Origin: an uncultured Acidobacteriota bacterium
GTDB lineage: Bacteria > Acidobacteriota > Terriglobia > Terriglobales > Acidobacteriaceae
DNA: 64,000 nt
Assembly (NCBI GenBank): GCA_963777415.1
Contig: CAVZQL010000009.1
Location: forward strand, 122,457 to 186,456
Reading direction: 5' to 3'
Shown: in pieces, positions 5,730 through 61,773 of the stretch
Numbering within the stretch: position 1 is the stretch's first letter
How the letters are laid out: each line of letters begins with the position of its first letter
Notes under the pieces: generated by a model
What the model was told of the DNA's origin: nothing
The model's input: the letters and a program-made list of their open reading frames with translations, nothing else
Databases searched by the model: none
Program-made: the position numbers and the translations under genes

Positions 5730-5747
5730 CCGACCGCCAGTGGGCAG
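5730..5747. promoter_or_regulatory. possible enhancer (UAS) palindrome, weak left half
   Basis: CCGACC-GCCAGT-GGGCAG, 10/12 to CTGCCC-N6-GGGCAG, centred 113 bp upstream of the GG at 5851. Confidence 0.25.
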
Positions 5748-5849
5748 TATGTCCATATACCGGCATCACGATATTAATGCGAAGAACAGGCGCCGCTTGT
5801 AAGCCTCGCTACTGCCGCACCTTGCATGATTCTCTTCCTTTGTTTCATG

Positions 5850-5865
5850 TGGCACATTCCGTGCA
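5850..5865 (+). promoter_or_regulatory. sigma-54-type promoter upstream of the TetR/DksA genes
   Basis: TGGCACATTCCGTGCA (TGGCAC-N5-GTGCA). Predicted start ~5876, leader ~100-160 nt. Confidence 0.6.
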
Positions 5866-5972
5866 ACTACAGAAGATGGGCAGACTGCGGGGTTCCGCAT
5901 TGACTGCCCTGCGATGCAAGCAAATGGCTGACACGGGGCGAAAAGCTTCCGACGGCCACATGAGGCGAATGA

Positions 5973-6695
5973 TTGAAGAACGCCAGCACCCCGACAACGA
6001 AGCGACGACCACCGGCAAGGCTCCACTGTACGCCGGTGCGGAGCAATAGTGCCGATGTAATCCTGTCTGCGGCCAAAGAGCTATTTGCGTCGAAGGGATT
6101 TCAGCAGACATCTATTCGCGACATTTGCAGTGCCGCAGGAATTACCCGACCGGTTCTGTACTACTTTTATAAAAACAAAATAGGTCTGTTTCGGGCCGTG
6201 ATGGATAAAGCTCGCCAGCACTTCGCCGAGTACTTTGTTTCGGCAGCCCAAGAGCACCCGCACTTCCGTCAGCAATGTGTTCACCTCACGAGACTGCTCT
6301 TCCATGACGCAGTGAAGAACCCACAGATGTGGCGATTGATGTTACTTAGCGTGTGGTTCGGGGCCACGCCAGCCTGCGATGAACTGCGTGAGTTGCGCGA
6401 AAACATGGTCGGGGTATTGATGCCCGAAAGCAGAAACTTCAGCTCTAGAAACTGCGATCCGCGTGTCAAGGCGGCAGCTTATGCCTATGCCGGCAGCGTG
6501 TCGCTCATGATAGCCAGATATCTGAACACTGGCGAGCCCGACATTTCAAACGTCCAAGCCGAGAGCCTGGTTGCTTCGCTGTTTGACGGGTGCGCAGGTT
6601 TCGCAGCTGGACATGGCTCCTCCTCCACGTCAACAGACAACAAAGGCCAACTCGGCAAGGTTCGCCCCGCTAAGAAAGGACGTCCTCGGCGATAA
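5973..6695 (+). CDS. TetR/AcrR family transcriptional regulator (start may be GTG 6036)
   Basis: N-terminal HTH signature ILSAAKELFASKGFQQTSIRDICSAAGITRPVLYYFYKNKIGLF. Track start 5973 is TTG. GTG at 6036 lies ~10 codons before the HTH, as is usual for TetR proteins. Confidence 0.85.
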   Translation: MKNASTPTTKRRPPARLHCTPVRSNSADVILSAAKELFASKGFQQTSIRDICSAAGITRPVLYYFYKNKIGLFRAVMDKARQHFAEYFVSAAQEHPHFRQQCVHLTRLLFHDAVKNPQMWRLMLLSVWFGATPACDELRELRENMVGVLMPESRNFSSRNCDPRVKAAAYAYAGSVSLMIARYLNTGEPDISNVQAESLVASLFDGCAGFAAGHGSSSTSTDNKGQLGKVRPAKKGRPRR

Positions 6696-6712
6696 CGCCA
6701 ATCGAGGCACTT

Positions 6713-7129
6713 ATGAACAGACGAACTAGCAACATGACCCGATCCCTGCAACACGAGCATTTGCGTGACAGGCTGCGTCACGAAGGCGCTCATCTGCGCA
6801 GTGCATTGAGCGAGGCAGAAGCTCGCTTGAGACAACTGAATGCAACCGATGTGTCGCAGGCAGACGAAACACTGACCAACTGCGATTTGGAATACCTGAC
6901 CAACGCCTACAACCGGCAACGAGAACGGCTCCAGTCGATAGTAGAAAGCCTGGAGCGAATCGAAGAGGGAACGTTCGGCCTGTGTGTCGGCTGCGATGAG
7001 CCGATCGGGGAGAAGCGACTCAAAGCTATGCCGTCGGCCAGATTCTGCATTTCCTGCCAGGAAGAACTGGAGCAGGGTGCGCGCTACCCGGTCGCGTCGG
7101 GAAATGCGTTACTGTCCAGAACATTTTAG
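6713..7129 (+). CDS. DksA/TraR family C4-type zinc-finger protein
   Basis: C-terminal CVGCDEPIGEKRLKAMPSARFCISC (CxxC-N17-CxxC) preceded by a coiled-coil region, the DksA/TraR architecture. Confidence 0.8.
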   Translation: MNRRTSNMTRSLQHEHLRDRLRHEGAHLRSALSEAEARLRQLNATDVSQADETLTNCDLEYLTNAYNRQRERLQSIVESLERIEEGTFGLCVGCDEPIGEKRLKAMPSARFCISCQEELEQGARYPVASGNALLSRTF

Positions 7130-7157
7130 TGCTCGCATCTGTTGCGGAGTTGTAAAG

Positions 7158-7661
7158 ATGGACGCTTTCTTGATCAGCATTCTTCTGTCGGGCGTGGCGA
7201 TGGTTTTATGTCTCTTCTTCAGCGAGCGGATTCGTCCCAGCCCCTCATCATCGTTGCGCGATTTCAGCCGCGCGTCGAGAGAGCTTGAGGGGGTGCTCGA
7301 AGTGATGCTGCCGTTGCCGCACCCGGCCGATGCGCTTCAGCCCGACCAGGCGCTCATTTGGAGTACTCAGATTCCGGCACTTCGATTCGTTAGCGACCGC
7401 GAACCACGAGGTGCTTATTACACGCCATTAAGACTCATATACATCGAGTCTGCGCGCCGCTATCCCGAAATCTACGACGGTTGCACTTTTCAGAACTGGG
7501 TGGAGTTTTACGTCCGCCGGGGGCTGCTTCACTTTGAAGATGATGCGATACATATCACAGCCGCCGGCCGTGAACTGCTTGGGATGTTGGAACGCAGCAC
7601 ACCGAGTGAGTCTGCGGCGCAGGCGCATCTCGGAACCCGGCCGAATACACGCCTTCGCTGA
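7158..7661 (+). CDS. hypothetical membrane-anchored protein
   Basis: Internal ATG of track ORF 6984-7661. MDAFLISILLSGVAMVLCLFF is a single N-terminal TM helix. The upstream part of the track ORF overlaps the DksA-like gene out of frame. Confidence 0.5.
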   Translation: MDAFLISILLSGVAMVLCLFFSERIRPSPSSSLRDFSRASRELEGVLEVMLPLPHPADALQPDQALIWSTQIPALRFVSDREPRGAYYTPLRLIYIESARRYPEIYDGCTFQNWVEFYVRRGLLHFEDDAIHITAAGRELLGMLERSTPSESAAQAHLGTRPNTRLR

Positions 7662-7700: not shown

Positions 7701-7718
7701 GTGCCCCAACATGGGCAT
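7701..7718. promoter_or_regulatory. putative enhancer (UAS) palindrome
   Basis: GTGCCC-CAACAT-GGGCAT (10/12), 90 bp upstream of the GG at 7799. Confidence 0.6.
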
Positions 7719-7797
7719 CCGCCCTGCGACGGGCGCAGGTTGCGAGCACAGCGTTGTACAAACGTCTGCGTTGGAATGAGTTACGGGAAGAGGCGAG

Positions 7798-7813
7798 TGG
7801 CAGAGCGTATGCA
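7798..7813 (+). promoter_or_regulatory. sigma-54-type promoter of the Spy/CpxP-like gene
   Basis: TGGCAGAGCGTATGCA. Palindrome GTGCCC-CAACAT-GGGCAT is centred 90 bp upstream of the GG. Confidence 0.7.
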
Positions 7814-7901
7814 CACCATTGTCAGGGATCAGTTACGCACCTGTGGTCGCGGTCACGGGCGGGCGTGCCGACCAGGAGTTTTGAGAAAGAGAGTAGCTCA
7901 T

Positions 7902-8480
7902 ATGAAGCGCTGGATAGTTAGTTTGTTCTTGATCGTTGTTGCAGGTTCAGTGGCGGCAGGGGCACGGGACCATGCCGGTAAGGGTATTTCGAACACGGTG
8001 GTCGCGACCGATGCGGAGAGTGCAGTGGTTCCTAATCTCCCGCCGGCCTCCGCTGAAACAGAGCGCAAGCTACAGGACACACAGGAAAATGCGGAGATGC
8101 AGGTGGATAACGCCCTGGCGATCGTTGTACCGCTTCCACCATTTCCAGCCGATGCCGATGAGCAATTGGTGCAGGATCTCGGACTGAGTCCGGCCCAGAT
8201 CACGGCAATGAAGGCACAAGTGGAAGAGGAGCGCAGGAAGTCGCAGCCGCTGATCGAGGACATCACCAGGATCGAGCGTCGCCTTGTCGCCATCACGCTG
8301 AACGGGAAGTTCGACGAGAAAGAGGTCCGGGAACTCGCAGAGAACGAAGCACACATACTGCAGGAGCTCATCATCTGTAATGTCCGACTCGAGACGGAAC
8401 TCTATAAAATGCTTACCGATCCGCAGCGCCGGCGGATTGATGAACTTCGTGTACAGGCGATAGTTTCGGGCAGGCAGTAG
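7902..8480 (+). CDS. Spy/CpxP-family periplasmic chaperone-like protein (LTxxQ motif)
   Basis: Signal peptide MKRWIVSLFLIVVAGSVAAGA; helical E/Q/R-rich body with LTDPQRRRIDEL. The promoter-like site at 7798-7813 lies inside the longer 259-aa track ORF, so the start is moved to ATG 7902. Confidence 0.65.
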   Translation: MKRWIVSLFLIVVAGSVAAGARDHAGKGISNTVVATDAESAVVPNLPPASAETERKLQDTQENAEMQVDNALAIVVPLPPFPADADEQLVQDLGLSPAQITAMKAQVEEERRKSQPLIEDITRIERRLVAITLNGKFDEKEVRELAENEAHILQELIICNVRLETELYKMLTDPQRRRIDELRVQAIVSGRQ

Positions 8481-8591: not shown

Positions 8592-10655
8592 TTAGTAATC
8601 AGCCCTTGTGATGTTTAGGCGCCGCATCTTGTTCTGTAGGGTAGTCCGCTTGAGTCCGAGGCGCTCTGCGGCGCCTCCGTTTCCGGAGATCCGCCCTGAA
8701 GCCGCCTTGAGGGCGGAGACGATGGCCTGGCGCTCGGCGTCATGGAAGCTGGAAACGAGTTCCGCGCCACGCCCACTGGTTTTACTGAGTTCTGACAGCG
8801 GAACATTCAACTCTTCGCCTTGCGTCAGAATGACAGCTCGCTCAACGAAGTTCTCCAATTCGCGAATGTTGCCCGGCCACGGCGCATTTGCCAGTGCTTC
8901 CATCGCATGCTTGGGGATGGACTTGATGCGTTTTTGCATTCGACGGGCCAATCGCGACACGAAGAAATGGACGAGAAGAGGGATATCCTCGCGACGTTCA
9001 CGAAGCGGGGGGATCTCGATAGGGAACACATTCAGCCGGTAGAACAAATCTTCGCGAAACTGGTTCTCACGGATCATCGCGTGAAGGTCACGATGGGTAG
9101 CAGTGATCAAGCGAACGTCAACGCTGATAGTCCTCCCGCTGCCCAGGCGCTCGAACTCTCGTTCCTGCAATGCTCGCAGTAGCTTCGGCTGTAATTCGAG
9201 GCTGATGTCGCCGATCTCGTCCAGGAACAGCGAGCCGTGGTCGGCCAACTCGAAGCGACCACGTTTCTGCATGAGCGCACCGGTGAATGCGCCTTTCTCG
9301 TGGCCAAACAGTTCGCTCTCCACCAGACCGGAAGGAATCGCTGCACAGTTGAGCCTGACGAAAGTTCGGTCTTTTCTGGGACTCAGACTGTGGATCGCAC
9401 GCGCGATCAGTTCCTTTCCGGTGCCGGTCTCGCCGTGGAGCAAGACCGTGGATGAAGTCGGAGCCACGATAGAGATCTGGTCCAGCACTTTGCGCAGCGC
9501 CGCGCTCTTCCCGACGATGTCTTCGAAGTTGTATTCAGAACGGATTTCCGATTCGAGGTACAGGCGCTCTTCTTCAAGGCGGTGTTTGGAGGCGTTCAGT
9601 CGGCCGAACGCGATCGCGTTCTCCATCGACAAAGCGATCTGGCTGCTGATCTGCGACAACAAGTCCAGATCTGCCTGCCGGAAGCTGTCTGGGTGACGAC
9701 TGCCCATGGTGATCACGCCCAGTGGGCCATTAGCCGTCGCAAGCGGAGCTAGTGCGATCGTCCTGATGGATTCAGCTTCCAACGGTTTACGGAACAGCGA
9801 TGGAAGGTTCTCAATACCATCGCTCGACAGAATTTCATGAGTTCGAGCGCGCATCTTTTCCATATCCTCATCGGTGATCTCCGATACGGGTAGGTCGGCG
9901 AGGAACCCCCTGCTGCTGGGGAAGTCCATGCTGGCGCACTCGAGCTTGTTCGATTCCTTGTCGATGATCCAAAAGCCGGTGAAGTCATTGGCGAAGTATT
10001 TTCGCAACGAAGATGAAGCCGAACAAAACAGCTCGTTCATGTCCAACTTCGAAACAACGTAGTTGTTGATCTCGAGAAGCAGCTTGAGGCGATCACGCTC
10101 CTGCGCGAGTTGGCGCTCGTACGCTCCCGCCGTGTCGATGGCGACGGCACTCTCGATGGCAAGCGCGACGTGCGAGGCCATCGAAGTCATCAGTTCCACT
10201 TCTTCGTCCGTGAACCGTCTCTTTTCAGCGCTGCCAAAGACCAAGGCCCCGAGTCTTCTTCGATGGGTCGAGATCGGGAACAAACACATACTTTGCAGTT
10301 CAACCAGAGGCACACGCGACCGCAGCTCTGGGATTTTCAGCAGTTCGCTTCTCGGGTCGTCGATGAATGCCGGCGTCTGCTCGTCGATTGCACGTCCGAG
10401 TGCCGTACCCGAAAGGGTGATTCGGGGGCTTGGGTTCGGGAGATCGGGAAGGTCGGGAGAACCGTCGAATGCGACGATTCGAGCAGAGCCGGACTGTGAC
10501 TCCAGCAGGAGGAGAGCGGCCAGATCAAAAACGATCACCTGGGATAGAAGCTTGCGCAAGCTGTGCAGGACCGCTTCAACGGTCGGTTGCTCTGCTACAG
10601 TGCTGGATACATCAAGTAAAGTCCGGTAGCGTTCTTCGGTTGCGATGGTCATCAT
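8592..10655 (-). CDS. sigma-54-dependent transcriptional activator, GAF-GAF-AAA+-Fis HTH (FhlA-like architecture)
   Basis: [15 protein letters not shown] (Walker A), [15 protein letters not shown] (GAFTGA sigma-54 contact loop), C-terminal [26 protein letters not shown]. About 380 N-terminal residues have two GAF-like regions. Confidence 0.9.
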   Translation of the reverse strand: MMTIATEERYRTLLDVSSTVAEQPTVEAVLHSLRKLLSQVIVFDLAALLLLESQSGSARIVAFDGSPDLPDLPNPSPRITLSGTALGRAIDEQTPAFIDDPRSELLKIPELRSRVPLVELQSMCLFPISTHRRRLGALVFGSAEKRRFTDEEVELMTSMASHVALAIESAVAIDTAGAYERQLAQERDRLKLLLEINNYVVSKLDMNELFCSASSSLRKYFANDFTGFWIIDKESNKLECASMDFPSSRGFLADLPVSEITDEDMEKMRARTHEILSSDGIENLPSLFRKPLEAESIRTIALAPLATANGPLGVITMGSRHPDSFRQADLDLLSQISSQIALSMENAIAFGRLNASKHRLEEERLYLESEIRSEYNFEDIVGKSAALRKVLDQISIVAPTSSTVLLHGETGTGKELIARAIHSLSPRKDRTFVRLNCAAIPSGLVESELFGHEKGAFTGALMQKRGRFELADHGSLFLDEIGDISLELQPKLLRALQEREFERLGSGRTISVDVRLITATHRDLHAMIRENQFREDLFYRLNVFPIEIPPLRERREDIPLLVHFFVSRLARRMQKRIKSIPKHAMEALANAPWPGNIRELENFVERAVILTQGEELNVPLSELSKTSGRGAELVSSFHDAERQAIVSALKAASGRISGNGGAAERLGLKRTTLQNKMRRLNITRADY

Positions 10656-11364: not shown

Positions 11365-11380
11365 AGCAAAACCAGTGCCA
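11365..11380 (-). promoter_or_regulatory. sigma-54 promoter of ECF-like paralog 1 (and probably the downstream GAF activator gene)
   Basis: The minus strand reads TGGCACTGGTTTTGCT, a full TGGCAC-N5-TTGC consensus. Predicted start ~16 nt before ATG 11338. Confidence 0.8.
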
Positions 11381-11453: not shown

Positions 11454-11471
11454 CTGCCCATATGCAGGCAC
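11454..11471. promoter_or_regulatory. putative enhancer (UAS) palindrome
   Basis: CTGCCC-ATATGC-AGGCAC (10/12), 84 bp upstream of the minus-strand GG at 11378-11379. A second CTGCCCA copy lies immediately 5-prime (11446-11452). Confidence 0.5.
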
Positions 11472-11645
11472 CACAGTCTCCGAGAACGGATTGACGACCT
11501 CTGCGCATTGTCAAACAGTGGCGCGGTCAGGCTTCTTCCTTCAGGAGAGTGCCCTTTTACAGGCAGCGCGCAAGCACGTCCCATGGGCCAGACTGCCCCG
11601 CACCAAGCACTTAAGGCCGCATTGCGGTTCGGTACTCGACGTTGT

Positions 11646-11663
11646 CTGCCCGTATTTCGGCAC
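11646..11663. promoter_or_regulatory. putative enhancer (UAS) palindrome
   Basis: CTGCCC-GTATTT-CGGCAC (10/12), 74 bp upstream of the GG at 11728. Confidence 0.45.
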
Positions 11664-11726
11664 CGGGACTATGTGCGGCCACAACGTCTAAGTCGTGTTT
11701 TCAAGTAGTTGCCAGAAGTGCCCGAT

Positions 11727-11742
11727 TGGCAAGCGATATGCA
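11727..11742 (+). promoter_or_regulatory. sigma-54-type promoter of the TolC-MFP-RND operon
   Basis: TGGCAAGCGATATGCA. Predicted start ~36 nt before ATG 11789 (GAGG RBS in the leader). Confidence 0.65.
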
Positions 11743-25465: not shown

Positions 25466-25481
25466 TGCAGGTGATGTGCCA
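25466..25481 (-). promoter_or_regulatory. sigma-54-type promoter of glgP
   Basis: The minus strand reads TGGCACATCACCTGCA. Palindrome CTGCCG-CAATGC-GGGCGG is centred 92 bp upstream. Confidence 0.7.
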
Positions 25482-25562: not shown

Positions 25563-25580
25563 CTGCCGCAATGCGGGCGG
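25563..25580. promoter_or_regulatory. putative enhancer (UAS) palindrome
   Basis: CTGCCG-CAATGC-GGGCGG (10/12), 92 bp upstream of the glgP GG. The first 11 nt are identical to the site at 52198. Confidence 0.5.
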
Positions 25581-25675
25581 GCACTCCTCAGATGCCTGAA
25601 TGTGGGCAACCGAAGAAGGGCCGGGAGCGCAGAGGCGGCGGTGATTTGGTGTGTTTTATGGGCACTTTCAGCTGA

Positions 25676-25693
25676 GGCAATCGAACGATTGCC
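25676..25693. promoter_or_regulatory. perfect inverted repeat GGCAATCG-AA-CGATTGCC upstream of the STAS/Mla operon
   Basis: Read directly. 8+2+8 palindrome with the opposite half-site order (GGCA...TGCC) to the common motif. Confidence 0.4.
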
Positions 25694-25766
25694 TACATAC
25701 GGGCACTAAACAAGCGCGCACGATCATTGGTTCTCCTTAACGGCGCCTTTTCAATCACTTGGAAGT

Positions 25767-25782
25767 TGGTATCCGAACTGCA
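25767..25782 (+). promoter_or_regulatory. weak sigma-54-like site before the STAS/Mla operon
   Basis: TGGTATCCGAACTGCA. It would leave only a ~7-nt leader before ATG 25800, so it is doubtful. A different palindrome (25676-25693) lies 84 bp upstream. Confidence 0.25.
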
Positions 25783-29913: not shown

Positions 29914-30139
29914 AATCCCGAGCGTCGCTAAATGCTTGAAGAACAGCAGTATCGCCGACCCTCGGCTGCCCAACTGTTAGCCCTGATACGGTCAGCTGCC
30001 AACCTGAGGTCGCCGAGCGCACCACGGACGATCACGAGCACGCGATTGAAAACGCAGCCAAAAATCGTGTCGCGCCTGTAAGAACAGGGGGATGGTTGCG
30101 TTTGGAAACGGAAGTGCCTCTACATGATTCGGGAAGGAG

Positions 30140-31082: not shown

Positions 31083-31162
31083 TTTGACCATCGCGGGGCA
31101 TTGATACCAAGGACACTGTCTCAAATCCCTTCGCTCTCATTCACTTAGCCGCACGATTGGAT

Positions 31163-31178
31163 TGGCACTCCCTGTGCA
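31163..31178 (+). promoter_or_regulatory. sigma-54-type promoter of the secreted-protein gene 31209-31853
   Basis: TGGCACTCCCTGTGCA. Leader ~20 nt containing GAGGAG. Confidence 0.7.
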
Positions 31179-38899: not shown

Positions 38900-40306
38900 A
38901 TGAGTCACACAGGAGCTTTGGTTTACGTAGTCGATGACGACGTTTCGGCGCGCGAAGGAGTAGCGAACCTGCTCCGTTCCGCTGGGCTGATTACAAAGAC
39001 TTTTACCTCAGCTGAGGAGTTCCTGGCTGCGCCGCGAACCAAGCCGCCGAGCTGTCTTGTGCTGGACGTGAATCTCCCTGGCTTAAGCGGCCTCGAACTG
39101 CAAGAGGAACTTGCAAAAACCAGTGGCAATGTCCCGATCATCTTCCTCACGGGCCACGGCGATATCCCGATGACAGTGCGCGCGGTCAGAGCTGGCGCGG
39201 TGAATTTCCTTACCAAGCCTGTCGACGATGAAGAACTCTTGAACGCGATCGAGCAGTGTGTCGCGACCTATGAAGATGAGCTTCGTTCCGATCTGAATGT
39301 GGGAAACATGGTCGGCGAGAGCGCGGCGTTCCAAGACGTCCTGAGAGCCCTCCAGATCGTGGCCCCTACCGACTCGACCGTGCTCATCGAAGGCGAAACC
39401 GGTACCGGAAAGGAACTGGTGGCACGCGCTATCCACGGCCTTAGCAGCAGAAGTAAGCGTCCGTTCGTGATGCTGAATTGCGCCGCTATCCCCGCCACCC
39501 TGCTCGAAAGCGAGCTGTTTGGCCACGAAAAAGGCGCCTTCACGGGGGCCTTCGCGCAGAAGATCGGGCGTTATGAAATGGCGCACCAGGGAACCCTGTT
39601 TCTCGATGAGATTGGCGAAATGCCGGTCGAACTCCAGCCCAAGCTGTTACGCGTTCTTCAGGAGCAGGAGTTTGAGCGCCTGGGCGGCACTCGAACCATT
39701 CGCGTGGATGTCCGCATCATCGCCGCAACAAATCGCAAACTGACGCAAATGGTCGATGAAGGAAAGTTCCGCAGCGACCTGTACTATCGTCTGCACGTGT
39801 TCCCCCTCACAGTACCGTCCTTGCGCCAGCGCCGCGAGGATATCCCCCTGCTGGTCCGGCACTTCACGCTCAAGTACGCGAAGAAGTTGAACCGCGTTAT
39901 CGACGAGATCCCTCCCGAGTCGATCGAAGCGCTCACCCGGTACGCCTGGCCCGGCAACATTCGCGAGTTGCAGAACACGGTCGAACGCTCCGTCATCCTG
40001 AGCCCCGGACGCGTGCTGCAGATTACTCCCCCGAACCGCGCCGTCAGTGGCCCCGCCGTGGAGCCAGCGAATGTGCAGCTGAACAACTCAGCTCACAGCC
40101 CTGAGGGCCAAAGCGTATCGACTTTCCGCGATGCCGAACGAATTGCCATCATTCACGCGCTGAAAGCTGCTGCGGGAAAGGTCGCCGGCGCAGGCGGAGC
40201 GGCAGAACGTCTAGGCCTGAAACGCACCACACTGCAGAACAAGATGCGGCTGCTGCAAATTTCCCGTTCGGACTACGTATCAGAATCGCCCAACGCACGC
40301 ATGTGA
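38900..40306 (+). CDS. NtrC-family sigma-54-dependent response regulator (REC-AAA+-Fis HTH)
   Basis: [14 protein letters not shown]...[13 protein letters not shown] receiver, [31 protein letters not shown]-terminal [23 protein letters not shown]. Confidence 0.92.
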
Positions 40307-47098: not shown

Positions 47099-47114
47099 TG
47101 CATTCGCCACGCCA
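47099..47114 (-). promoter_or_regulatory. sigma-54-type promoter upstream of the TonB-dependent-like receptor gene
   Basis: The minus strand reads TGGCGTGGCGAATGCA. The perfect palindrome CTGCCC-TAAGTA-GGGCAG is centred 93 bp upstream. Leader ~210 nt. Confidence 0.55.
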
Positions 47115-47196
47115 AAACACTCCGTGTAAGAAGCTGCCTGTTTTCAATGCTCTTGCTGTCGCGACCGCTTTCTTTGCCCGCATCGCGGCAGCAAAG

Positions 47197-47214
47197 CTGC
47201 CCTAAGTAGGGCAG
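47197..47214. promoter_or_regulatory. putative enhancer (UAS) palindrome, or hairpin
   Basis: CTGCCC-TAAGTA-GGGCAG (12/12), extended to GCTGCCCTA-AG-TAGGGCAGC. Lies 93 bp upstream of the GG at 47112-47113 and 207 nt downstream of the paralog-2 stop. Confidence 0.6.
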
Positions 47215-49587: not shown

Positions 49588-49603
49588 AGCACGATGTTTG
49601 CCA
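49588..49603 (-). promoter_or_regulatory. sigma-54-type promoter upstream of radical SAM / ECF-like paralog 2
   Basis: The minus strand reads TGGCAAACATCGTGCT. TTGCCG-ATATTC-AGGCAC is centred 92 bp upstream. Leader ~160 nt. Confidence 0.5.
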
Positions 49604-49605
49604 AA

Positions 49606-49684: not shown

Positions 49685-49702
49685 TTGCCGATATTCAGGC
49701 AC
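49685..49702. promoter_or_regulatory. putative enhancer (UAS) palindrome
   Basis: TTGCCG-ATATTC-AGGCAC (8/12, core TGCC-N8-GGCA intact), 92 bp upstream of the GG at 49601-49602. Confidence 0.4.
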
Positions 49703-49946
49703 TTGGACCAGATGTGGTCATCTGCAACGCGAGGGGCCGCCGCCTTGAAAATTAAATCGGGCGCTCGATCATGCAGTTCGAGCGTCCAGGGAGGCGGAAT
49801 GCGCGCTGTTTCAGGAGGCGATGTGGTCACCGCAGCGCGTCCGCATGAGGGAGGTTTTTGTCGAGTCGCTGCGGTATGAACAGCTCTCCTCTTGCCCACT
49901 CGAGTCTGAGATGTTCATCCGCAGTGACATAACGCCGCTCGATTCG

Positions 49947-50531: not shown

Positions 50532-50584
50532 TTTGTTCGTCCTCCAAGGGGTCGTTATCTGAAACTCATTACGCCTGGGATTAA

Positions 50585-50600
50585 GGCACGGCGGTTGCCA
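50585..50600 (-). promoter_or_regulatory. sigma-54-type promoter of the OMP barrel gene
   Basis: The minus strand reads TGGCAACCGCCGTGCC. Leader ~43 nt with GGAGG. Confidence 0.45.
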
Positions 50601-50674
50601 ACTTTGGAGGACGTACAAAGCTGAACAAACACAAGTGGTTACGCATAATCACAACAACGAGACTGCCGCTTTGT

Positions 50675-50692
50675 TTGCCCGAATGTCGGCCA
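50675..50692. promoter_or_regulatory. weak enhancer-like palindrome
   Basis: TTGCCC-GAATGT-CGGCCA (8/12), 85 bp upstream of the GG at 50598-50599. Confidence 0.3.
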
Positions 50693-50759
50693 CGTGCCCG
50701 TCTACTGTCATCAAACTGCTCGTGCAGCGCAACACCGTCGCACGGTTTCGCCATGTTCG

Positions 50760-52104: not shown

Positions 52105-52120
52105 TGCAACCGAACCGCCA
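52105..52120 (-). promoter_or_regulatory. sigma-54-type promoter of NTP-transferase gene 51175-51972
   Basis: The minus strand reads TGGCGGTTCGGTTGCA. The shared palindrome is centred 88 bp upstream. Confidence 0.6.
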
Positions 52121-52197: not shown

Positions 52198-52215
52198 CTG
52201 CCGCAATGAAGGCAG
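52198..52215. promoter_or_regulatory. putative enhancer (UAS) palindrome shared by divergent promoters
   Basis: CTGCCG-CAATGA-AGGCAG (10/12), 88 bp from the minus-strand GG (52118-52119) and 98 bp from the plus-strand GG (52304-52305). Confidence 0.55.
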
Positions 52216-52302
52216 TTGCCGGGATTCGGGCAAAGTTCCCCGCGCTTCGCCAGGAATCGGTCATTTTCCCGGCACAACTCGCGTGCATTAAGCCATTTCG
52301 GT

Positions 52303-52318
52303 TGGCAGGTGAATTGCG
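52303..52318 (+). promoter_or_regulatory. sigma-54-type promoter of the LolA-like gene
   Basis: TGGCAGGTGAATTGCG. The shared palindrome is centred 98 bp upstream. Leader ~69 nt. Confidence 0.65.
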
Positions 52319-53516: not shown

Positions 53517-53862
53517 CTGCAGGAATGCACTCGGCGCATCTGACGGAGGCGGGGTGGCAGACTGTCGCTCACCCGTATTTGGCTTATGCGCCGAGTGCAA
53601 ACAGGTCCGCGAACAAGACGATCACGAACCAACTCGAAATTCGATTTCTTAAATTCGCTTCCACGAAACCGGCGGCTCCGAACATGATTCCCTGTCCTAT
53701 ATCAGTGCTATACGTTCCCACCCGATTGGGTCGCCCGTCTGCGATCGCTCCCGGGGGAGACGGAAATTCACCTCGAAAGCGGTCGCAGACTGCCAAGCGA
53801 ACCGGTGCTCCCGGGGACAAACCCGCTCGGCTCGCTACCGGGACAACACCGCACTCTGTCAA

Positions 53863-53878
53863 TGCAGCTCTCGTGCCA
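53863..53878 (-). promoter_or_regulatory. orphan sigma-54-type promoter in a gene-poor 550-bp gap
   Basis: The minus strand reads TGGCACGAGAGCTGCA. The next annotated minus-strand start (53437) is ~415 nt downstream. Confidence 0.55.
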
Positions 53879-53939
53879 CTCGAAACAAGTTGTAAGTCTT
53901 TGATTTTCCGCACCCACCCGAAGCGCTCTTTCTGTTTCG

Positions 53940-53957
53940 GCGCCCAAATGCAGGCAG
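53940..53957. promoter_or_regulatory. weak enhancer-like palindrome
   Basis: GCGCCC-AAATGC-AGGCAG (9/12), 72 bp upstream of the orphan promoter GG at 53876-53877. Confidence 0.25.
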
Positions 53958-53994
53958 GTGTCAGACTGTGGGCACCGGGTAAGCCGCTTGGGCC

Positions 53995-54898: not shown

Positions 54899-56986
54899 TT
54901 ACCTCGAACCCTTTGCCGATCCCTCTACGAGGGGGGCGACCAGCACAACAACTGAGTGTGGCTGGGCACAAAAATGGCTGTCCATTACAAGAGGCGCTTG
55001 TTCCGTATCGACGATATCGCAGGGCGAGTCCTGGCCGGTGTCGATCCAGCGCCGCCAGCCACCCTTTTGAAACGGCAGTTCGAAACGGAGTGGGTCCCAA
55101 TAGGCGTTCAAAATCGCGCACATCGCTATTTTTTCCGGGGGAATCTCGCCGCTGAGAGCCAGGCTATGAGAGTAGTAGCTCCAGTCCGGCTGGCCCAGCG
55201 CCACTCCATGCCACTCCTTGTACGTACTGCCGAGCAGTTGCTTGAGCGTCCATCGAGCACGCTCCGGCTGGTCATCGCGCCTCACCCTATATGCACAAAG
55301 CCGACTGAAGAATCGAAGCAGGTCGGCGTGCTCGTTCAGCAGTCCCCAGTCGAACCAGGTAGTCTCGTCGTCGTGGCAATAAGCGTTGTTATTTCCACCC
55401 TGAGTGCGACGCACTTCGTCGCCCATGGAAAACATCGGCACGCCCAAAGCCAGTGTGGTGACCGTAATGAGGTTTTTCACTTGCCGCTCCCGAAACTTCT
55501 CGACTTCCGGGTTCGTGGACGGCCCTTCTACGCCAAAGTTGTAACTTCGATTGTCGTCGGCGCCGTCGCGGTTATTTTCCTTGTTTGCCTCATTGTGTTT
55601 CGTGTTGTACGAGACAAGGTCGTTCAGCGTGAATCCGTCATGGCAGGTCACGAAATTGATACTCTGCTCCGCTTCTCTTTCTCCCTGTTCGTAAATCTTG
55701 GGGCTCCCCATCAAACCGTCGGCAAACCCCTGCACGGAGCCATTGTCGCCCCGAAAGAAGCTGCGAACCTCGTCACGAAAGCGTCCGTTCCACTCTTTCC
55801 AACTGTCTCCCGGAAAACTGCCCACCTGGTAAAGCCCTGCCGCGTCCCATGCTTCCGCGATCAGCTTCACGCCGGCCAAAAACGGATCCGTCTCTATGTC
55901 CCACAGCAGCGGCGGATTGGCCAGAACCTGCCCGCATGAGTCCCGCGCCATGATCGAGGCCAGATCGAATCGAAATCCGTCCACATGCATCTCGCTCACC
56001 CAGTAGCGCAGGCTGTCCAGTATCATGCGCCGCACAATCGGATGATTGCCATTGATCGTGTTTCCCGTACCCGTGTAGTCGGCATACCGAGTCTTATCAC
56101 CTTCGAGGATGTAGTAAGCGCAGTTGTCGATTCCCCGCAGGCTGAAAGTCGGTCCCTTCTGATCGCCTTCCGCGGTGTGATTAAAGACCACATCCAGGAT
56201 CACCTCGATCCCGGCGCGATGTAGAACCTTTACCATGTCGCGGAATTCATCAAGCGCCCCCATGCAACTCGCGCGCGAGCTATACGCCCGATGCGGGGCG
56301 AAGAACGACACCGGCGCATATCCCCAGTAGTTGACCAGCCCCGGTGGACAATCCTGGGCGTCGAATTGAAACACCGGCATCAGCTCGACCGCTGTAATAC
56401 CCAGTTCCTTCAGGTACGGAATCTTCTCGCACAATCCCGCATACGTTCCGCCAATACCCGCGCCGACGTTGGAACTTGGATGCCGCGTAAATCCCCGTAC
56501 GTGCAGTTCATAAATAATGGTCTGACACCACGGTCGCCGCAGCGGCACATCGCCTTCCCAATCGTAGGTGCTCGTGTCCACCACCACGCCCTTCATCGCA
56601 CCTGCGGTGTTGTCACCCGCTTCAGCCGCAGCGGCACGACTGTAGTGACGCGGCACGATCACGGAACGCGCGTAAGGGTCCAGCAGAACCTTCTCTGGGT
56701 CGAAGCGCATTCCCTTGCACGGCTCGAACGGCCCTCGGACTCGGTATCCATACAGCTGTCCCGCCTTGAGTCCGGGCACGAATAAATGCCAGTAGTAGTA
56801 AGTGCGATTGACGTCCGGATCCAGGCAAATCGTCCTGCTTGGCCTCGCGCAATCTTCGCTGTCAAAGAGGAGCAGTTCTACCCCGGTGGCGTGTCGTGAA
56901 TACAGACTGAAGTTCACGCCGGATTCCTGCACCGTCGCGCCCAGAGGAAAGCTTCTTCCGACCTGTTGAGTAGAGTTCGTTCTCAC
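54899..56986 (-). CDS. glgX: glycogen debranching enzyme
   Basis: FPLGATVQESGVNFSLYSRHATGVELLLFD N-terminus, GH13 motifs DVVFNHT, GFRFDLA, EAWD, FVTCHD. GTG start at 56986 without an obvious SD. Confidence 0.92.
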   Translation of the reverse strand: MRTNSTQQVGRSFPLGATVQESGVNFSLYSRHATGVELLLFDSEDCARPSRTICLDPDVNRTYYYWHLFVPGLKAGQLYGYRVRGPFEPCKGMRFDPEKVLLDPYARSVIVPRHYSRAAAAEAGDNTAGAMKGVVVDTSTYDWEGDVPLRRPWCQTIIYELHVRGFTRHPSSNVGAGIGGTYAGLCEKIPYLKELGITAVELMPVFQFDAQDCPPGLVNYWGYAPVSFFAPHRAYSSRASCMGALDEFRDMVKVLHRAGIEVILDVVFNHTAEGDQKGPTFSLRGIDNCAYYILEGDKTRYADYTGTGNTINGNHPIVRRMILDSLRYWVSEMHVDGFRFDLASIMARDSCGQVLANPPLLWDIETDPFLAGVKLIAEAWDAAGLYQVGSFPGDSWKEWNGRFRDEVRSFFRGDNGSVQGFADGLMGSPKIYEQGEREAEQSINFVTCHDGFTLNDLVSYNTKHNEANKENNRDGADDNRSYNFGVEGPSTNPEVEKFRERQVKNLITVTTLALGVPMFSMGDEVRRTQGGNNNAYCHDDETTWFDWGLLNEHADLLRFFSRLCAYRVRRDDQPERARWTLKQLLGSTYKEWHGVALGQPDWSYYSHSLALSGEIPPEKIAMCAILNAYWDPLRFELPFQKGGWRRWIDTGQDSPCDIVDTEQAPLVMDSHFCAQPHSVVVLVAPLVEGSAKGSR

Positions 56987-56998: not shown

Positions 56999-57014
56999 TG
57001 CACGAGAGTTGCCA
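56999..57014 (-). promoter_or_regulatory. sigma-54-like site immediately upstream of glgX
   Basis: The minus strand reads TGGCAACTCTCGTGCA. The sequence match is good and a palindrome lies 83 bp upstream, but the predicted start is only ~2 nt before GTG 56986. Confidence 0.35.
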
Positions 57015-57086: not shown

Positions 57087-57104
57087 CTGCCATCATGCGG
57101 GCAT
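57087..57104. promoter_or_regulatory. putative enhancer (UAS) palindrome shared by divergent promoters
   Basis: CTGCCA-TCATGC-GGGCAT (10/12), 92 bp from the plus-strand GG (57187-57188) and 83 bp from the minus-strand GG (57012-57013). Confidence 0.55.
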
Positions 57105-57185
57105 CTCGCCCGTTCTTGGGCACTAACCGCGGCTTCGCCGGCGACCAAGTCCCATTGCCACAAGCAGTTGTGATCCCTCGCCCTT

Positions 57186-57201
57186 GGGCATTCTACGTGC
57201 A
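57186..57201 (+). promoter_or_regulatory. sigma-54-type promoter of the zinc-ribbon ORF / ECF-like paralog 3
   Basis: GGGCATTCTACGTGCA. Palindrome CTGCCA-TCATGC-GGGCAT is centred 92 bp upstream. Leader ~50 nt. Confidence 0.55.
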
Positions 57202-57261: not shown

Positions 57262-57471
57262 ATGAAAAGTCTAACGAAGGTAGTCGATTACTTGTTCGGG
57301 TGTCATCACGAACATCTCAGTCGTGTATTCACGATCAACAAGCGCAGTTATCGCGTCTGCTGTGATTGCGGCGCAAACTTCGATTTTTCGCTGATCACAA
57401 TGAAAACGCGCTCTGACGCTCGTGACCGCAGCGCCGCGTTCCAGTCGAACGCGCAGCTGAAGGCTGTTTGA
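57262..57471 (+). CDS. small Cys/His-rich (zinc-ribbon-like) hypothetical protein
   Basis: GCHHEH...YRVCCDCG gives CHH plus CxxC ligands. Promoter-like site 50 nt upstream. Precedes ECF-like paralog 3. Confidence 0.45.
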   Translation: MKSLTKVVDYLFGCHHEHLSRVFTINKRSYRVCCDCGANFDFSLITMKTRSDARDRSAAFQSNAQLKAV

Positions 57472-57657
57472 GCCGAACGCTGAAGGCATGAGGGCGATCA
57501 CTCTCAACACGAAGTTTACCCATGCGGGCCCTCGTCGTACTTGGACTCGTCGAAGGTCCGCATCGGCGCACGGGCCGACTGATCGCAATCAACGAGGGTG
57601 CGGACACCCCACCGCATCCTGGCCCGTGCCAAATCTGGACAGAAGAGGGCCCCGACA

Positions 57658-58239
57658 ATGAGACCGTTTTTTTTGAAAGCGCAGCGAAATCCGATCCTGA
57701 ACACCCAGCGCGCGACGCCGGAACAACTTCATAACGTCTTCATAGATCATCGACAAGATCTCTACTGGCTGGCCTTGTTCTTGACCGGCGATGAAATTAC
57801 GGCCGAGGCCTGCATCGTCGATGCCTGTGCCCTCGCGACGACCGGCAATAAGGTATTCGCAGAATGGCTTGAGCACTGGGCTCGCAGGTCCACCGTGCGT
57901 TCGGCGATCGACACACAGAAGGGGAGGATCGCCCAGCTCGCGGCTTCCTACGAGCGCCGCCCCTGCTCTCATCGTGACCACCAGCCGTTAGCGCCGGAGA
58001 GCATCACGCTCCTTCGGGACAGCGGTCTCGCTCCTCTTCGCATGGACGCTCTCTGCCGGTTCGCAATCGTCCTACGCGGAATCGAAGGCTATTCCGCTCA
58101 CGAATCCGCCCTGTTGCTGAACATAAGCAGAGCCGTATTCGACGCCGCCTATTGTGCAGCAATGGACACGCTCACGATCTTCCTTGGTGCCGCCCAAGCC
58201 CAACCGGGAGAGGCGGCACTATGCGCCATGACGTGCTGA
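57658..58239 (+). CDS. divergent ECF-type sigma-factor-like protein, paralog 3
   Basis: HRQDLYWLALFLTGDEITAEACIVDACALA / WARRSTVRSAIDTQK / YERRPCSHRDHQP / MDALCRFAIVLRGIEGYSAHESALLLNISRAVFDAAYCAAMDTL. ATG 57658 gives the same length (~193 aa) as the paralogs. Confidence 0.55.
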   Translation: MRPFFLKAQRNPILNTQRATPEQLHNVFIDHRQDLYWLALFLTGDEITAEACIVDACALATTGNKVFAEWLEHWARRSTVRSAIDTQKGRIAQLAASYERRPCSHRDHQPLAPESITLLRDSGLAPLRMDALCRFAIVLRGIEGYSAHESALLLNISRAVFDAAYCAAMDTLTIFLGAAQAQPGEAALCAMTC

Positions 58240-59722: not shown

Positions 59723-59738
59723 AGCACTTGGATTTCCA
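59723..59738 (-). promoter_or_regulatory. sigma-54-like site of the pseudo-receiver gene
   Basis: The minus strand reads TGGAAATCCAAGTGCT (weak -24). The perfect palindrome CTGCCC-GCGGAT-GGGCAG is centred 90 bp upstream. Confidence 0.45.
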
Positions 59739-59817
59739 ATGCCCATCCCACGCAAGTTGCTGGATTCAAAGCACACACTCGCTGCACGAGCGCGCCGGCC
59801 CTGACTTCATCTTGGCA

Positions 59818-59835
59818 CTGCCCGCGGATGGGCAG
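59818..59835. promoter_or_regulatory. putative enhancer (UAS) palindrome
   Basis: CTGCCC-GCGGAT-GGGCAG (12/12; extended CACTGCCC/GGGCAGTG), 90 bp upstream of the GG at 59736-59737. Confidence 0.6.
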
Positions 59836-59873: not shown

Positions 59874-60227
59874 CTAATGAACTGTGTGGCTGCGGTGCGC
59901 CGTCCTCACTTCCATCGGCGCAATGGGATGCGTGCGAGCGGGTTCGCCCAGTAGAGCGAGTTGCAGCCGCTCGCAGAGATGCCGCGCGTAGGAGCTCTCC
60001 GCAATGAACGTCGCTCCAATGCGCTTCAACCAATGCAACGCCGCCTCGCCCGCCGAATCGGCGAAGGTTACTTCCGACAGATCCACTACCAGATTTGAAC
60101 TGATATTCCTGGTCGCGAGCAGTTGGATCGTTTCCTCCGCAAAAGAACCGACGAATCGACCCTCTATGCGCATAGTGAGGTCATTGGGCCGTTCCTCAAA
60201 GCTGATACGAAACATTCTGATCTCCAT
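59874..60227 (-). CDS. STAS-domain protein (anti-sigma-antagonist fold)
   Basis: LTMRIEGRFVGSFAEE...NLVVDLSEVTFADSAGEAALHWLKRIGATFIAES. Confidence 0.7.
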   Translation of the reverse strand: MEIRMFRISFEERPNDLTMRIEGRFVGSFAEETIQLLATRNISSNLVVDLSEVTFADSAGEAALHWLKRIGATFIAESSYARHLCERLQLALLGEPARTHPIAPMEVRTAHRSHTVH

Positions 60228-60258
60228 CGGAGGCTTGCCGCCTCACACAACCTGAAGG

Positions 60259-60274
60259 TGCAGTCCGCATACCA
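60259..60274 (-). promoter_or_regulatory. sigma-54-like site of the STAS gene 59874-60227
   Basis: The minus strand reads TGGTATGCGGACTGCA. No matching upstream palindrome. Confidence 0.3.
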
Positions 60275-60513
60275 ACGGAAATCATTGATAACACTCGACT
60301 CGCAAGGAGCAGGTCGTCCTCCGGCGGGCACGTCGCCCGCCGATGGTCAATGGATCTCTAGCGTGGCGTACCGTACGTAGACCTGGAGAAAAGTGCGGGC
60401 ACCGTTAAGCGGCGCCCGCTGAGCAACGTGAGTAGCGGGTTGTGGAAGATTCAAGAGCGGTAGTTGCGGTTTGTGAAAACAGGAGATTCAAGCGGTAGCT
60501 GTGGTCTCGCTCC

Positions 60514-60876
60514 TCACGCTGCATTTGCGAACGAAATCTGATCTATGCTCCGGACGATCGCGGGCCGAGAGGCTGAAGTGATCGGCACCACAGGCGCCGG
60601 CTGAGAACCACCTATCGGTGCCGCTAATCGCCGCGGCAGACCCATGACGCGCTCCCACCGTCGCCAGAAGTAATCGGCAACCCGCGGAGTTGCGGCGGAC
60701 AGCTCCGCTGCATTTCGCCACTCGATTGCTGCGGTGTACTGGAAGCCATTGCGCTCATCGCGCTCGGCGGCGCAGCCGTAATGAAGAGCCTTCGCGGCAA
60801 CAACGACATGCGACAACCACCATGCTGTGATGGCTGTGATTGCTGGGTTCCTCTTGTTGTTGTTGCCGCTTGTCAT
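60514..60876 (-). CDS. hypothetical protein (120 aa)
   Basis: ATG 60876 (MTSGNNNK) is preceded by GAGGAGAAGGG and lies ~31 nt after a strong sigma-54-type promoter at 60918-60933. No motif recognised. Confidence 0.5.
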   Translation of the reverse strand: MTSGNNNKRNPAITAITAWWLSHVVVAAKALHYGCAAERDERNGFQYTAAIEWRNAAELSAATPRVADYFWRRWERVMGLPRRLAAPIGGSQPAPVVPITSASRPAIVRSIDQISFANAA

Positions 60877-60917
60877 TGCCCTTCTCCTCGTTTTCAGCCT
60901 CGTACGCACATAGGTAG

Positions 60918-60933
60918 AGCAAGGGCAATGCCA
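60918..60933 (-). promoter_or_regulatory. sigma-54 promoter of hypothetical gene 60514-60876
   Basis: The minus strand reads TGGCATTGCCCTTGCT (TGGCA-N6-TTGCT). Palindrome CTGCCC-GTCGAT-GGGCAT is centred 101 bp upstream. Confidence 0.7.
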
Positions 60934-60966
60934 AAAGTTTCACGGCGCTAAATCATTGAGAGGGGA

Positions 60967-61773
60967 TTAGATGGCGGGCTTTTTGTTCGGCGCGACCGAA
61001 CTCGAACTCGGAAATGCCAACTGCTGCCCGTCGATGGGCATTTGAGCCGTGGCACTGGGCATCGCGACTGACATTATTTCGGCGCGAACTACTCACGGGA
61101 GTTACGGGAAACACACCTCGCGGCTACAGCGGCGTAGACAAAAGACTGCGTGGCATACGGGCTAGCGTCCACGAATCCGGCACTCACTCCCGGTTGTGTC
61201 TGGTTGGTCGCATGGATGAACCAACCCCCGGTGAGGCGGTTAGCAAGCGCCTGCTGGCGCGCTTGGGCGCGCTGTGCAGGAACGGCCAGATCCGAAGCTG
61301 AACACGTGCTTGCGGTTGTAATCCACTTTGCCGTAGCTTACGTTCTTGTCCACCCCGAAGTTAGTCGTAGGCATAATCAGATGCCTTCGAGAAGGTGTAG
61401 AACGCAGTGAACTGCAGGCCCTTGCTGAACCGTTTATCCACGCGGTTTGGCATGAGTTGTACTTGCTGTTTGCATCCGGCGAAACGAAGGACAGGTCGCC
61501 GTCGCAGCACTGCGCAACCGTACGGTCGCTATAGGTCTAGTTATACCGGTTGTGGTGGGCGCGGCGACTCAGGGTCGTGCCTGAGCCCACTCTGGCCTGG
61601 TTCATGTTGTATCCGGCATTACCGGCGTAGACCGCTTCGCCCCAGTTGCCCACGTAGGCGACTTCAGCCGTCAGCGTGTTGGTGAACTGGAACTAAAGAC
61701 TGGCGTTCCAGGAATCCACGGTGGGCAACTGCATCTTGCTTGGACGCACCGAGGGATAGCTCACGCCATTCTG
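60967..61773 (-). pseudogene. decayed C-terminal remnant of a TonB-dependent-receptor-like OMP
   Basis: Own minus-strand translation: PTVDSWNASL*FQFTNTLTAEVAYVGNWGEAVYAGNAGYNMNQ...N*TYSD..., then after a frameshift DKRFSKGLQFTAFYTFSKASDYAYD*, then NFGVDKNVSYGKVDYNRKHVFSFG and LANRLTGGWFIHATNQTQPGVSAGF. These are classical TBDR C-terminal blocks, interrupted by stops and frameshifts. The N-terminal ~800 codons are missing. Confidence 0.7.
61024..61041. promoter_or_regulatory. putative enhancer (UAS) palindrome
   Basis: CTGCCC-GTCGAT-GGGCAT (11/12), 101 bp upstream of the GG at 60931-60932. Lies inside the TBDR remnant. Confidence 0.6.

Follow-up and report, generated by a model that had tools for sequence, protein, structure and literature searches.

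The classical layout of a sigma-54-dependent promoter, with an enhancer, an integration host factor (IHF) site and the promoter itself, is exemplified by nifH, where NifA uses an upstream activating sequence (UAS) of the form TGT-N10-ACA together with IHF, and by the NtrC sites at glnAp2. Here we examine a palindrome, CTGCCC-N6-GGGCAG (core TGCC-N8-GGCA), that recurs ahead of sigma-54-like promoters in 64,000 nucleotides of DNA, hereafter the window, from an uncultured member of the Terriglobia (Acidobacteriota; Acidobacteriaceae; contig CAVZQL010000009.1, positions 122,457 to 186,456). Terriglobia rank among the most numerous bacteria of soil and peat, and to our knowledge almost nothing is known of their transcriptional regulation. 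The closest characterized homologue of the GAF-GAF activator in the window is FhlA, which binds TG[A/T]C-N6-G[A/T]CA dyads about 100 bp upstream of sigma-54 promoters, usually in two copies (PMC7658346). The sigma-54 regulome of Desulfovibrio vulgaris comprises 37 enhancer-binding proteins (EBPs) and about 84 promoters, and two of these proteins, DVU0946 and DVU0539, use one motif (PMC4641369). Literature searches returned no description of the palindrome or of sigma-54 regulation in Acidobacteria, which agrees with the view taken when the motif was first noticed, from the window sequence alone, that it matches no described operator.

We propose that the palindrome is very probably the enhancer, or UAS, of a sigma-54 regulon in Terriglobia and is recognized by EBPs. 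The window encodes two candidates, EBP1 (8592..10655, minus strand), by Pfam annotation a GAF-GAF-AAA+-HTH_8 activator, which resembles FhlA over its full length, and EBP2 (38900..40306, plus strand), a REC-AAA+-HTH_8 activator with the recognition helix of EBP1. What we observe is a motif of defined specificity, position and conservation, a recurrent promoter architecture, clustering with activator genes, and a helix-turn-helix shared by the activators. A common enhancer had been the original prediction, and it is supported by a strong positional tie to -24/-12 elements that repeats in 80 loci on which that prediction did not draw.

The window contains 14 exact cores where 1.40 are expected, an enrichment of about 10-fold, and the highest count in 100 dinucleotide shuffles was five. 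A scan of spacings from N2 to N14 gave these 14 cores at N8 and 0-6 at every other spacing. The 13 sites that agree with CTGCCC-N6-GGGCAG at 10 or more of 12 positions all lie in non-coding DNA, which makes up ~12% of the window, or in clearly over-extended open reading frame (ORF) starts. Matches of 9/12 occur in coding DNA about 30 times per 56 kb, a rate that fits the earlier estimate of a chance match in about 1% of 20-bp intervals. Instead of being equally common in coding DNA and free of positional bias, an outcome that had been named beforehand as fatal to the idea, the strong copies are intergenic and positioned at promoters. Each of the 13 sites originally listed is present with the sequence and coordinates given for it, and recomputed centre-to-GG distances agree within 1 bp. 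Further exact cores, beyond that list, lie at 11549, 25592, 25689, 47174 and 52216, with weaker partner sites at 5749, 29978/29996, 53958, 59801 and 57106.

Window promoters were identified by a consensus scan for GG-N10-GC elements correctly oriented ahead of genes, which found about 20. In 17 of these, the -24 GG is preceded by one or two palindromes, mostly an abutting pair, whose centres lie 69.5-112.5 bp upstream. The upstream position that had been predicted holds, but the single distance of ~90 bp does not, as it resolves into a tandem pair with a proximal site ~70-92 bp and a distal site ~88-112 bp from GG. In three divergent intergenic regions the palindromes lie between two outward-facing promoters; the two promoters have their sites in common at 52198/52216 and at 57087, and the region 11454-11663 has a separate site for each promoter plus one central site. 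Some two-thirds of the transcription units in the window appear to be sigma-54-dependent through one enhancer type.

Scanning species-representative genomes with EBP1 yielded 80 further loci (L001-L080; 1.57 Mb), all from metagenome-assembled genomes of Terriglobia with EBP1 orthologues of 60-74% identity and covering at least the orders Terriglobales and Ca. Acidiferrales. The exact core is found 239 times in these loci against 37 expected (6.4x), and other spacings between N2 and N14 return 27-77 cores. Among 16 variants of TGxC-N8-GyCA, strong enrichment (6.4x) is confined to the CC/GG combination. Refinement gives the consensus c-TGCCC-g/a-c-A-T-g-c/t-GGGCA-g, in which the central AT is conserved, and a palindromic position weight matrix; the third half-site position is C in 88% of sites, and spacer and flank positions vary from site to site. 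A second half-site class, TGACC...GGTCA, suggested by some loci, was considered and rejected: TGAC..GTCA occurs 20 times against 27 expected and only hybrid sites are mildly enriched, so we regard these as degenerate copies. The same lack of enrichment of a compensatory variant favours a protein site over a hairpin.

The motif is tightly linked to promoters in the loci, too. The bin 60-100 bp upstream accounts for 135 of 189 motif-promoter pairs, and on the downstream side there are almost none. Of the palindromes, 74.5% are accompanied at 55-105 bp by an outward-pointing element with a sigma-54 score of 12 or more, as against 4.2% in a wrong-orientation control and 2.9% in a displaced control. 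Conversely, a palindrome lies upstream of 90% of the strongest sigma-54 sites at a threshold with 3% false positives, and only five such sites lack one. One of the five, a strong site conserved at L050:6673(+) and L065:7855(+), is TGGCAAGCCATTTGCA; it precedes an ORF of 145 aa and may be the target of another activator. When metagenomes were scanned for perfect copies, most of the hits were chance matches in unrelated organisms; eight of 82 copies have a sigma-54 site at the right distance, all of them at a GC content of 0.50-0.55, and the link between palindrome and promoter is therefore lineage-specific. One metagenome contig of 46% GC (Ga0247832_1091580, L141) carries three perfect CTGCCC-NN-AT-NN-GGGCAG copies within 1.3 kb (199-216, 301-318 and 1264-1281) with no sigma-54 site nearby, probably an unrelated repeat.

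The promoters themselves have a recurrent architecture. Centre-to-centre spacings of neighbouring palindromes peak at 17 bp (67 cases), 24 bp (22) and 41 bp (9), as expected of abutting dyads. Of 247 promoters, 83 contain an IHF-like sequence, TCAA-N4-TTR, in a single orientation and with its TCAA placed 25-27 bp from GG on the upstream side (0-2 of 247 control segments); five or six window promoters have it as well. Stacking the 39 promoters that immediately follow EBP1 orthologues, most of them in front of a STAS gene, shows only the tandem palindromes, the IHF-like box and the -24/-12 element to be kept. This layout is the classical tripartite sigma-54 arrangement, and it brings together the attributes of an enhancer: an upstream-only position, dyad symmetry with adjacent copies, an encoded AAA+ activator that has a GAFTGA loop and, at its C terminus, a helix-turn-helix, and an intervening IHF-like site. 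Palindrome-to-GG distances peak at about 60, 71, 80 and 90 bp, which is suggestive of helical phasing; we do not claim phasing, because the peaks are confounded by tandem sites and orthology.

The mechanism that we infer from these patterns, including physical binding, the paralogue or paralogues that bind, the signal that is sensed and the dependence on IHF, is as follows. Dimers of FhlA-like EBPs with a common recognition helix, EBP1 and EBP2 among them, would bind the tandem dyads and, once the sensor module is activated, form an AAA+ hexamer. This hexamer would be brought to the closed sigma-54 holoenzyme at -24/-12 by an IHF-type bend, with its centre some 20 bp upstream of -24, and would open the promoter at the expense of ATP. 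Where two promoters diverge from an intergenic region, both would be served by one pair of sites, and the activators' own operons would be among the genes controlled.

Which activators use the palindrome is a separate matter. EBP1 aligns end to end with Escherichia coli FhlA at 39% identity and scores 540 bits over the full length of the NCBIfam FhlA equivalog model NF011958, below its cutoff of 830. EBP1 and EBP2 do not differ in their helix-turn-helix, recognition helix included. Outside the 80 orthologues, the loci and the window contain 29 activator ORFs, of which 20 have the EBP1/EBP2 helix or a one-residue variant of it; among the other nine, four have a different helix or C-terminus, four run off the contig end so that the helix is unreadable, and one is apparently disrupted. 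The 20, among which both activators of the window are counted, include GAF-type, receiver (EBP2 of the window) and sensor-less (about 355 aa) forms. A protein search with the 54-aa DNA-binding domain, made for sensor architectures, yielded nothing but short gene fragments. That this domain is unusually conserved among paralogues was also considered and rejected, as its identity exceeds that of the AAA+ domain for the window pair only (73% vs 64%).

From these data it is possible, if still tentative, that several paralogous activators use the palindrome in common. A competing hypothesis of similar but somewhat doubtful standing is that the palindrome serves one dedicated activator, EBP1, and that EBP2 and the other paralogues use sites differing subtly in spacer or flank bases. 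The motif does cluster tightly at EBP1 genes: 39 of 80 loci have a copy directly downstream and 14 have one upstream, and the density of motif plus promoter falls from 2-2.7 per 10 kb at up to 5 kb from EBP1 genes to 0.6-0.8 per 10 kb at 5-10 kb, so that this activator subfamily and the motif are genomically linked. Moreover, spacers and flanks do differ between sites, and EBP2 has no strong copy right beside its gene. Against a dedicated enhancer, the recognition helix is identical in EBP1, EBP2 and most paralogues, no second motif class was found beside TGCC/GGCA, the only strongly enriched variant, and nearly every sigma-54 promoter in the examined regions has the motif, which leaves no separate set of promoters there for the other paralogues. 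The broadest form of the common-use hypothesis, which we consider rather unlikely, is that in Terriglobia sigma-54 is not divided between many activators with an enhancer each, and that a whole paralogous activator family (GAF-GAF, receiver and sensor-less) shares one DNA-binding domain and one enhancer. Many signals would in that case feed one regulon, whose envelope and stress promoters might number in the hundreds. The sensor-less forms would perhaps be controlled by co-encoded STAS proteins or by the 196-aa proteins described below.

Several points count against the enhancer hypothesis or its extension to many activators. The evidence consists of sequence statistics throughout, and the sigma-54 score is an ad hoc, home-made consensus score. 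The 80 loci were picked through EBP1 and are no unbiased sample of genomes, and many of their promoters are orthologous and so not independent; ribosomal and EF-Tu genes, sought in these loci as anchors for an unbiased Terriglobia sample, were not found there. A spacing of 17 bp puts neighbouring dimers on different helical faces, unlike the NtrC paradigm. Three strong sigma-54-like sites in the window, 30986(-), 31163(+) and 60274(-), have a degenerate palindrome or none. Finally, co-located paralogues in the loci have AAA+ domains 77-98% identical and are close relatives overall, so their common helix may reflect recent duplication and not selection for one site.

A palindrome of 16-18 bp is also typical of the sites of many dimeric regulators, and TetR genes are among the downstream targets in window and loci. 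It is nevertheless improbable that the palindrome is the operator of a non-AAA+ factor, such as a TetR-type repressor or co-regulator, with the true enhancer elsewhere or the activators acting from solution. At about -85 to -125 from the start site it is too far upstream for classical repression, its discrete distances, tandem copies and IHF-like box before the promoter form an enhancer layout, the upstream region has no further conserved element that could be the obligatory activator site, and the motif is alike in kind to the site of FhlA. Despite its intergenic location and a possible GC-rich stem of 5-6 bp within its 16-18 bp span, a chance or compositional feature, a dispersed repeat of the REP or MITE type, or a DNA or RNA hairpin such as a terminator is effectively refuted by promoter position, sigma-54 association and half-site and spacing specificity: both enrichments, in window and loci, concern one fixed half-site and one spacing and do not extend to the compensatory variant, the spacer is variable with no T-run, two orders agree in the position relative to the promoters of downstream genes, Rfam gives no match, and perfect copies outside the lineage are mostly not tied to sigma-54 sites.

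If the palindrome is an enhancer, its predicted targets are mostly a cell-envelope and stress set. The window gene set is of Acidobacteria type by Pfam annotation, and its predicted targets include an RND efflux OEP-HlyD-AcrB-DegP operon, an Mla operon, a TonB-dependent-receptor-like protein, an OmpA-like barrel and a LolA-like protein, alongside a TetR regulator, a Spy/CpxP-like LTXXQ protein, the operon of EBP1 with a 196-aa protein, a radical-SAM gene, receiver proteins, a STAS protein and a Usp protein. In the loci, the 247 downstream ORFs were clustered and Pfam was run on representatives of the largest clusters. The families there are OEP and HlyD efflux, TonB, outer-membrane beta-barrels, DUF2490, DUF4136, LolA-like, VTT/DedA, STAS (two families), LPG-synthase-like, family-2 glycosyltransferase, TetR, UDP-glucose dehydrogenase and acetate kinase. 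Hydrogenase and formate dehydrogenase genes are absent from both window genes and locus targets. Sigma-54 has been proposed to control the bacterial exterior (PMC3162934), and the envelope and stress set fits and sharpens that proposal. Two genes of glycogen breakdown, for glycogen phosphorylase (22894-25395, minus strand) and the debranching enzyme (54899-56986, minus strand), each have their own palindrome and sigma-54 promoter, and a phosphofructokinase gene (19394-20554, plus strand) ends the efflux-DegP operon; because of this, mobilization of carbon stores seems to be coupled to the envelope regulon.

In the first part of the window, weak tandem palindromes at 5730..5766 (5730 CCGACC-N6-GGGCAG and 5749 ATGTCC-N6-CGGCAT) lie 112.5 and 93.5 bp from the GG of the sigma-54-like promoter TGGCACATTCCGTGCA (5850..5865, plus strand), upstream of the TetR gene (5973). 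The palindrome GTGCCC-CAACAT-GGGCAT, with a weak abutting copy at 7719 (7701..7736), is centred 89.5 bp from the GG of TGGCAGAGCGTATGCA (7798..7813, plus strand), upstream of the LTXXQ gene. The operon of the 196-aa protein and EBP1 has the promoter-like element TGGCACTGGTTTTGCT (11365..11380, minus strand), which makes autoregulation possible, with CTGCCC-ATATGC-AGGCAC (11454..11471) 83.5 bp from its GG. Diverging from it, the OEP-HlyD-AcrB-DegP operon has TGGCAAGCGATATGCA (11727..11742, plus strand), an IHF-like core TCAAGTAGTTG (11701..11711, plus strand) 27 bp upstream of GG, and CTGCCC-GTATTT-CGGCAC (11646..11663) at 73.5 bp; the extra central palindrome between the two promoters is GTGCCC-TTTTAC-AGGCAG (11549..11566).

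The putative glycogen phosphorylase promoter TGGCACATCACCTGCA (25466..25481, minus strand) is preceded by two palindromes in 25563..25609 (25563 CTGCCG-CAATGC-GGGCGG and 25592 ATGCCT-GAATGT-GGGCAA) at 91.5 and 120.5 bp. Upstream of the Mla (MlaE/F/D) operon, TTGCCT-ACATAC-GGGCAC (25689..25706) is 70.5 bp from the GG at 25767(+), within an interval (25751..25782, plus strand) that holds the IHF-like TCAATCACTTG and sigma-54-like TGGTATCCGAACTGCA. A receiver-domain gene has CGGCACGACACCTGCA (29898-29913, minus strand), the IHF-like TCAAGCATTTA (29929-29939) and weaker tandem palindromes TAGCCC-N6-GGTCAG and CTGCCA-N6-GGTCGC (29978..30013) at 74.5 and 92.5 bp. The sigma-54-like site TGGCACTGCAGTTGCT (30971-30986, minus strand) fits the consensus perfectly and lacks both a palindrome and an obvious gene downstream on its strand. 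Opposite it is the 31163(+) promoter TGGCACTCCCTGTGCA, which together with a degenerate palindrome TTGACC-ATCGCG-GGGCAT at 31084 (31084..31178, plus strand) is ahead of hyp214, a histidine kinase and a LuxR-type regulator, with EBP2 further downstream. That kinase (31912-37776, plus strand; 1954 aa) has a Reg_prop/Y_Y_Y beta-propeller and 6-7 PAS domains and is followed by the LuxR-type response regulator and then EBP2; it may be the kinase for the EBP2 receiver domain.

The gene for the TonB-dependent-receptor-like outer-membrane protein has TGGCGTGGCGAATGCA (47099..47114, minus strand) with tandem palindromes TTGCCC-GCATCG-CGGCAG and CTGCCC-TAAGTA-GGGCAG (47174..47214) at 69.5 and 92.5 bp. 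The radical-SAM gene and the second gene for a 196-aa protein (hyp196b), which follows it, have TGGCAAACATCGTGCT (49588..49603, minus strand) with TTGCCG-ATATTC-AGGCAC and a weak abutting copy (49685..49721) at 91.5 bp, and the OmpA-like beta-barrel gene has TGGCAACCGCCGTGCC (50585..50600, minus strand) with TTGCCC-GAATGT-CGGCCA and a weak abutting copy (50675..50711) at 84.5 bp. The tandem palindromes at 52198..52233 are common to TGGCGGTTCGGTTGCA (52105..52120, minus strand; nucleotidyltransferase gene), 87.5/105.5 bp from the GG at 52120, and TGGCAGGTGAATTGCG (52303..52318, plus strand; LolA-like protein), 97.5/79.5 bp from the GG at 52303. Ahead of a small ORF (53587-53820) are TGGCACGAGAGCTGCA (53863-53878, minus strand), the IHF-like TCAAAGACTTA (53893-53903) and tandem palindromes GCGCCC-AAATGC-AGGCAG and GTGTCA-GACTGT-GGGCAC (53940..53975) at 71.5 and 89.5 bp.

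Near the end of the window, CTGCCA-TCATGC-GGGCAT with a weak copy at 57106 (57087..57123) is common to the glycogen debranching enzyme promoter TGGCAACTCTCGTGCA (56999..57014, minus strand) and to GGGCATTCTACGTGCA (57186..57201, plus strand), at 82.5 and 91.5 bp; the latter is ahead of a conserved small ORF (57262-57468, plus strand; 68 aa) that belongs to a cluster of six similar small ORFs from other loci. Longer minus-strand ORFs that overlap it (hyp105 and hyp130; 57271-57981) have no family hits and may be spurious. A single-domain receiver protein has TGGAAATCCAAGTGCT (59723..59738, minus strand) with CTGACT-TCATCT-TGGCAC and CTGCCC-GCGGAT-GGGCAG, 17 bp apart (59801..59835), at 72.5 and 89.5 bp. 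The STAS gene has TGGTATGCGGACTGCA (60259-60274, minus strand), the IHF-like TCAATGATTTC (60278-60288) and a degenerate palindrome TTGACC-ATCGGC-GGGCGA (60333-60350) at about 68 bp. Lastly, hyp131 has TGGCATTGCCCTTGCT (60918-60933, minus strand), the IHF-like TCAATGATTTA (60949-60959) and CTGCCC-GTCGAT-GGGCAT (61024..61041), 100.5 bp from the GG at 60933. The mechanically called ORFs 7701-8480, 48043-49899, 29344-29973 and 49947-50618 have over-extended starts that run over a promoter or palindrome; real starts are likely near 7881 (LTXXQ), 49467 (radical SAM) and 29820 (receiver), and that of the OmpA-like gene must lie below 50585.

The two 196-aa paralogues (10748-11338 and 47422-48012, both minus strand) are 40% identical and match no Pfam family, with a weak SigE/ECF-sigma-like hit only. 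The first is co-transcribed with EBP1 and the second follows the radical-SAM gene. Of the 80 loci, 23 and 34 encode a homologue, often just upstream of EBP1, and these proteins may be regulatory partners of the activators. The small STAS-domain gene (59874-60227, minus strand; anti-sigma-antagonist-like) has homologues in 69 of 80 loci, usually directly downstream of EBP1 (about +2000 to +3500 from the EBP1 start) and with their own tandem-palindrome/sigma-54 promoter; the window copy is 50 kb from EBP1 and has a degenerate palindrome only. Sensor-less paralogues consisting of AAA+ and helix-turn-helix only, as in PspF, lie beside EBP1 orthologues, for example at L035:14849-15922, L050:12491-13570 and L065:12473-13624 and 19156-20238, and would need a protein partner for control.

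An EBP enhancer is a known kind of element, and the use of one motif by two EBPs has precedent in D. vulgaris (PMC4641369). What is new is the motif itself, its conservation across the lineage, the very dense local clustering of sigma-54 promoters (about 20 in 64 kb) and the possibility of one enhancer for several differently sensing activators. Together, the motif, promoter architecture, candidate regulators and target list provide a testable regulatory code for Terriglobia across at least two orders, and the apparent density of sigma-54 dependence in the window is far above that known from E. coli or Desulfovibrio. Should several differently sensing activators indeed share the enhancer, this would be an unusual design of many inputs and one enhancer. 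We know of no general envelope-stress response of the RpoS, sigma-E or Cpx kind in the phylum Acidobacteriota, and a family-wide common enhancer, if true, would constitute a sigma-54-based counterpart of these systems.

Of the known systems, FhlA is the most similar. Like FhlA, EBP1 has the order GAF-GAF-AAA+-HTH and aligns with it end to end at the 39% identity given above, and the helix-turn-helix begins with an identical RLGLKRTTL. Both systems use TG.C...G.CA dyads, usually paired, ahead of a -24/-12 promoter. However, the FhlA half-site is TG[A/T]C with a core spacing of N6, whereas the Terriglobia motif is TGCC(C) with N8, and neither the N6 spacing nor the A/T half-site variants are enriched in our data. 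The recognition helix of FhlA (TTLLSRMKRL) differs from that of EBP1 and EBP2, in keeping with the different half-site and spacing. FhlA targets hyc/hyf, hyp and fdhF, whereas the predicted Terriglobia targets are envelope and stress genes, and the FhlA regulon contains far fewer promoters than that of Terriglobia, which also has several paralogous activators.

The NifA and NtrC systems share the overall plan, with tandem dyads 70-150 bp upstream, an IHF-type site between and a -24 GG/-12 GC promoter, and the NifA UAS spans 16 bp as the Terriglobia palindrome does. The half-sites are nevertheless unlike (TGTC-N8-GACA, 14 observed vs 22 expected), NifA and NtrC sites are spaced by whole helical turns whereas the Terriglobia sites abut at 17-19 bp, and the Terriglobia IHF-like box is very near the promoter, with TCAA 26 bp from GG. 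The D. vulgaris regulome provides a precedent both for defining EBP motifs by comparative genomics and for two paralogous EBPs with one motif (PMC4641369). There, however, most EBPs have their own motif and few targets, whereas in Terriglobia one motif stands at nearly all sigma-54 promoters in 1.6 Mb and, unlike in D. vulgaris, a common helix extends across at least three sensor architectures.

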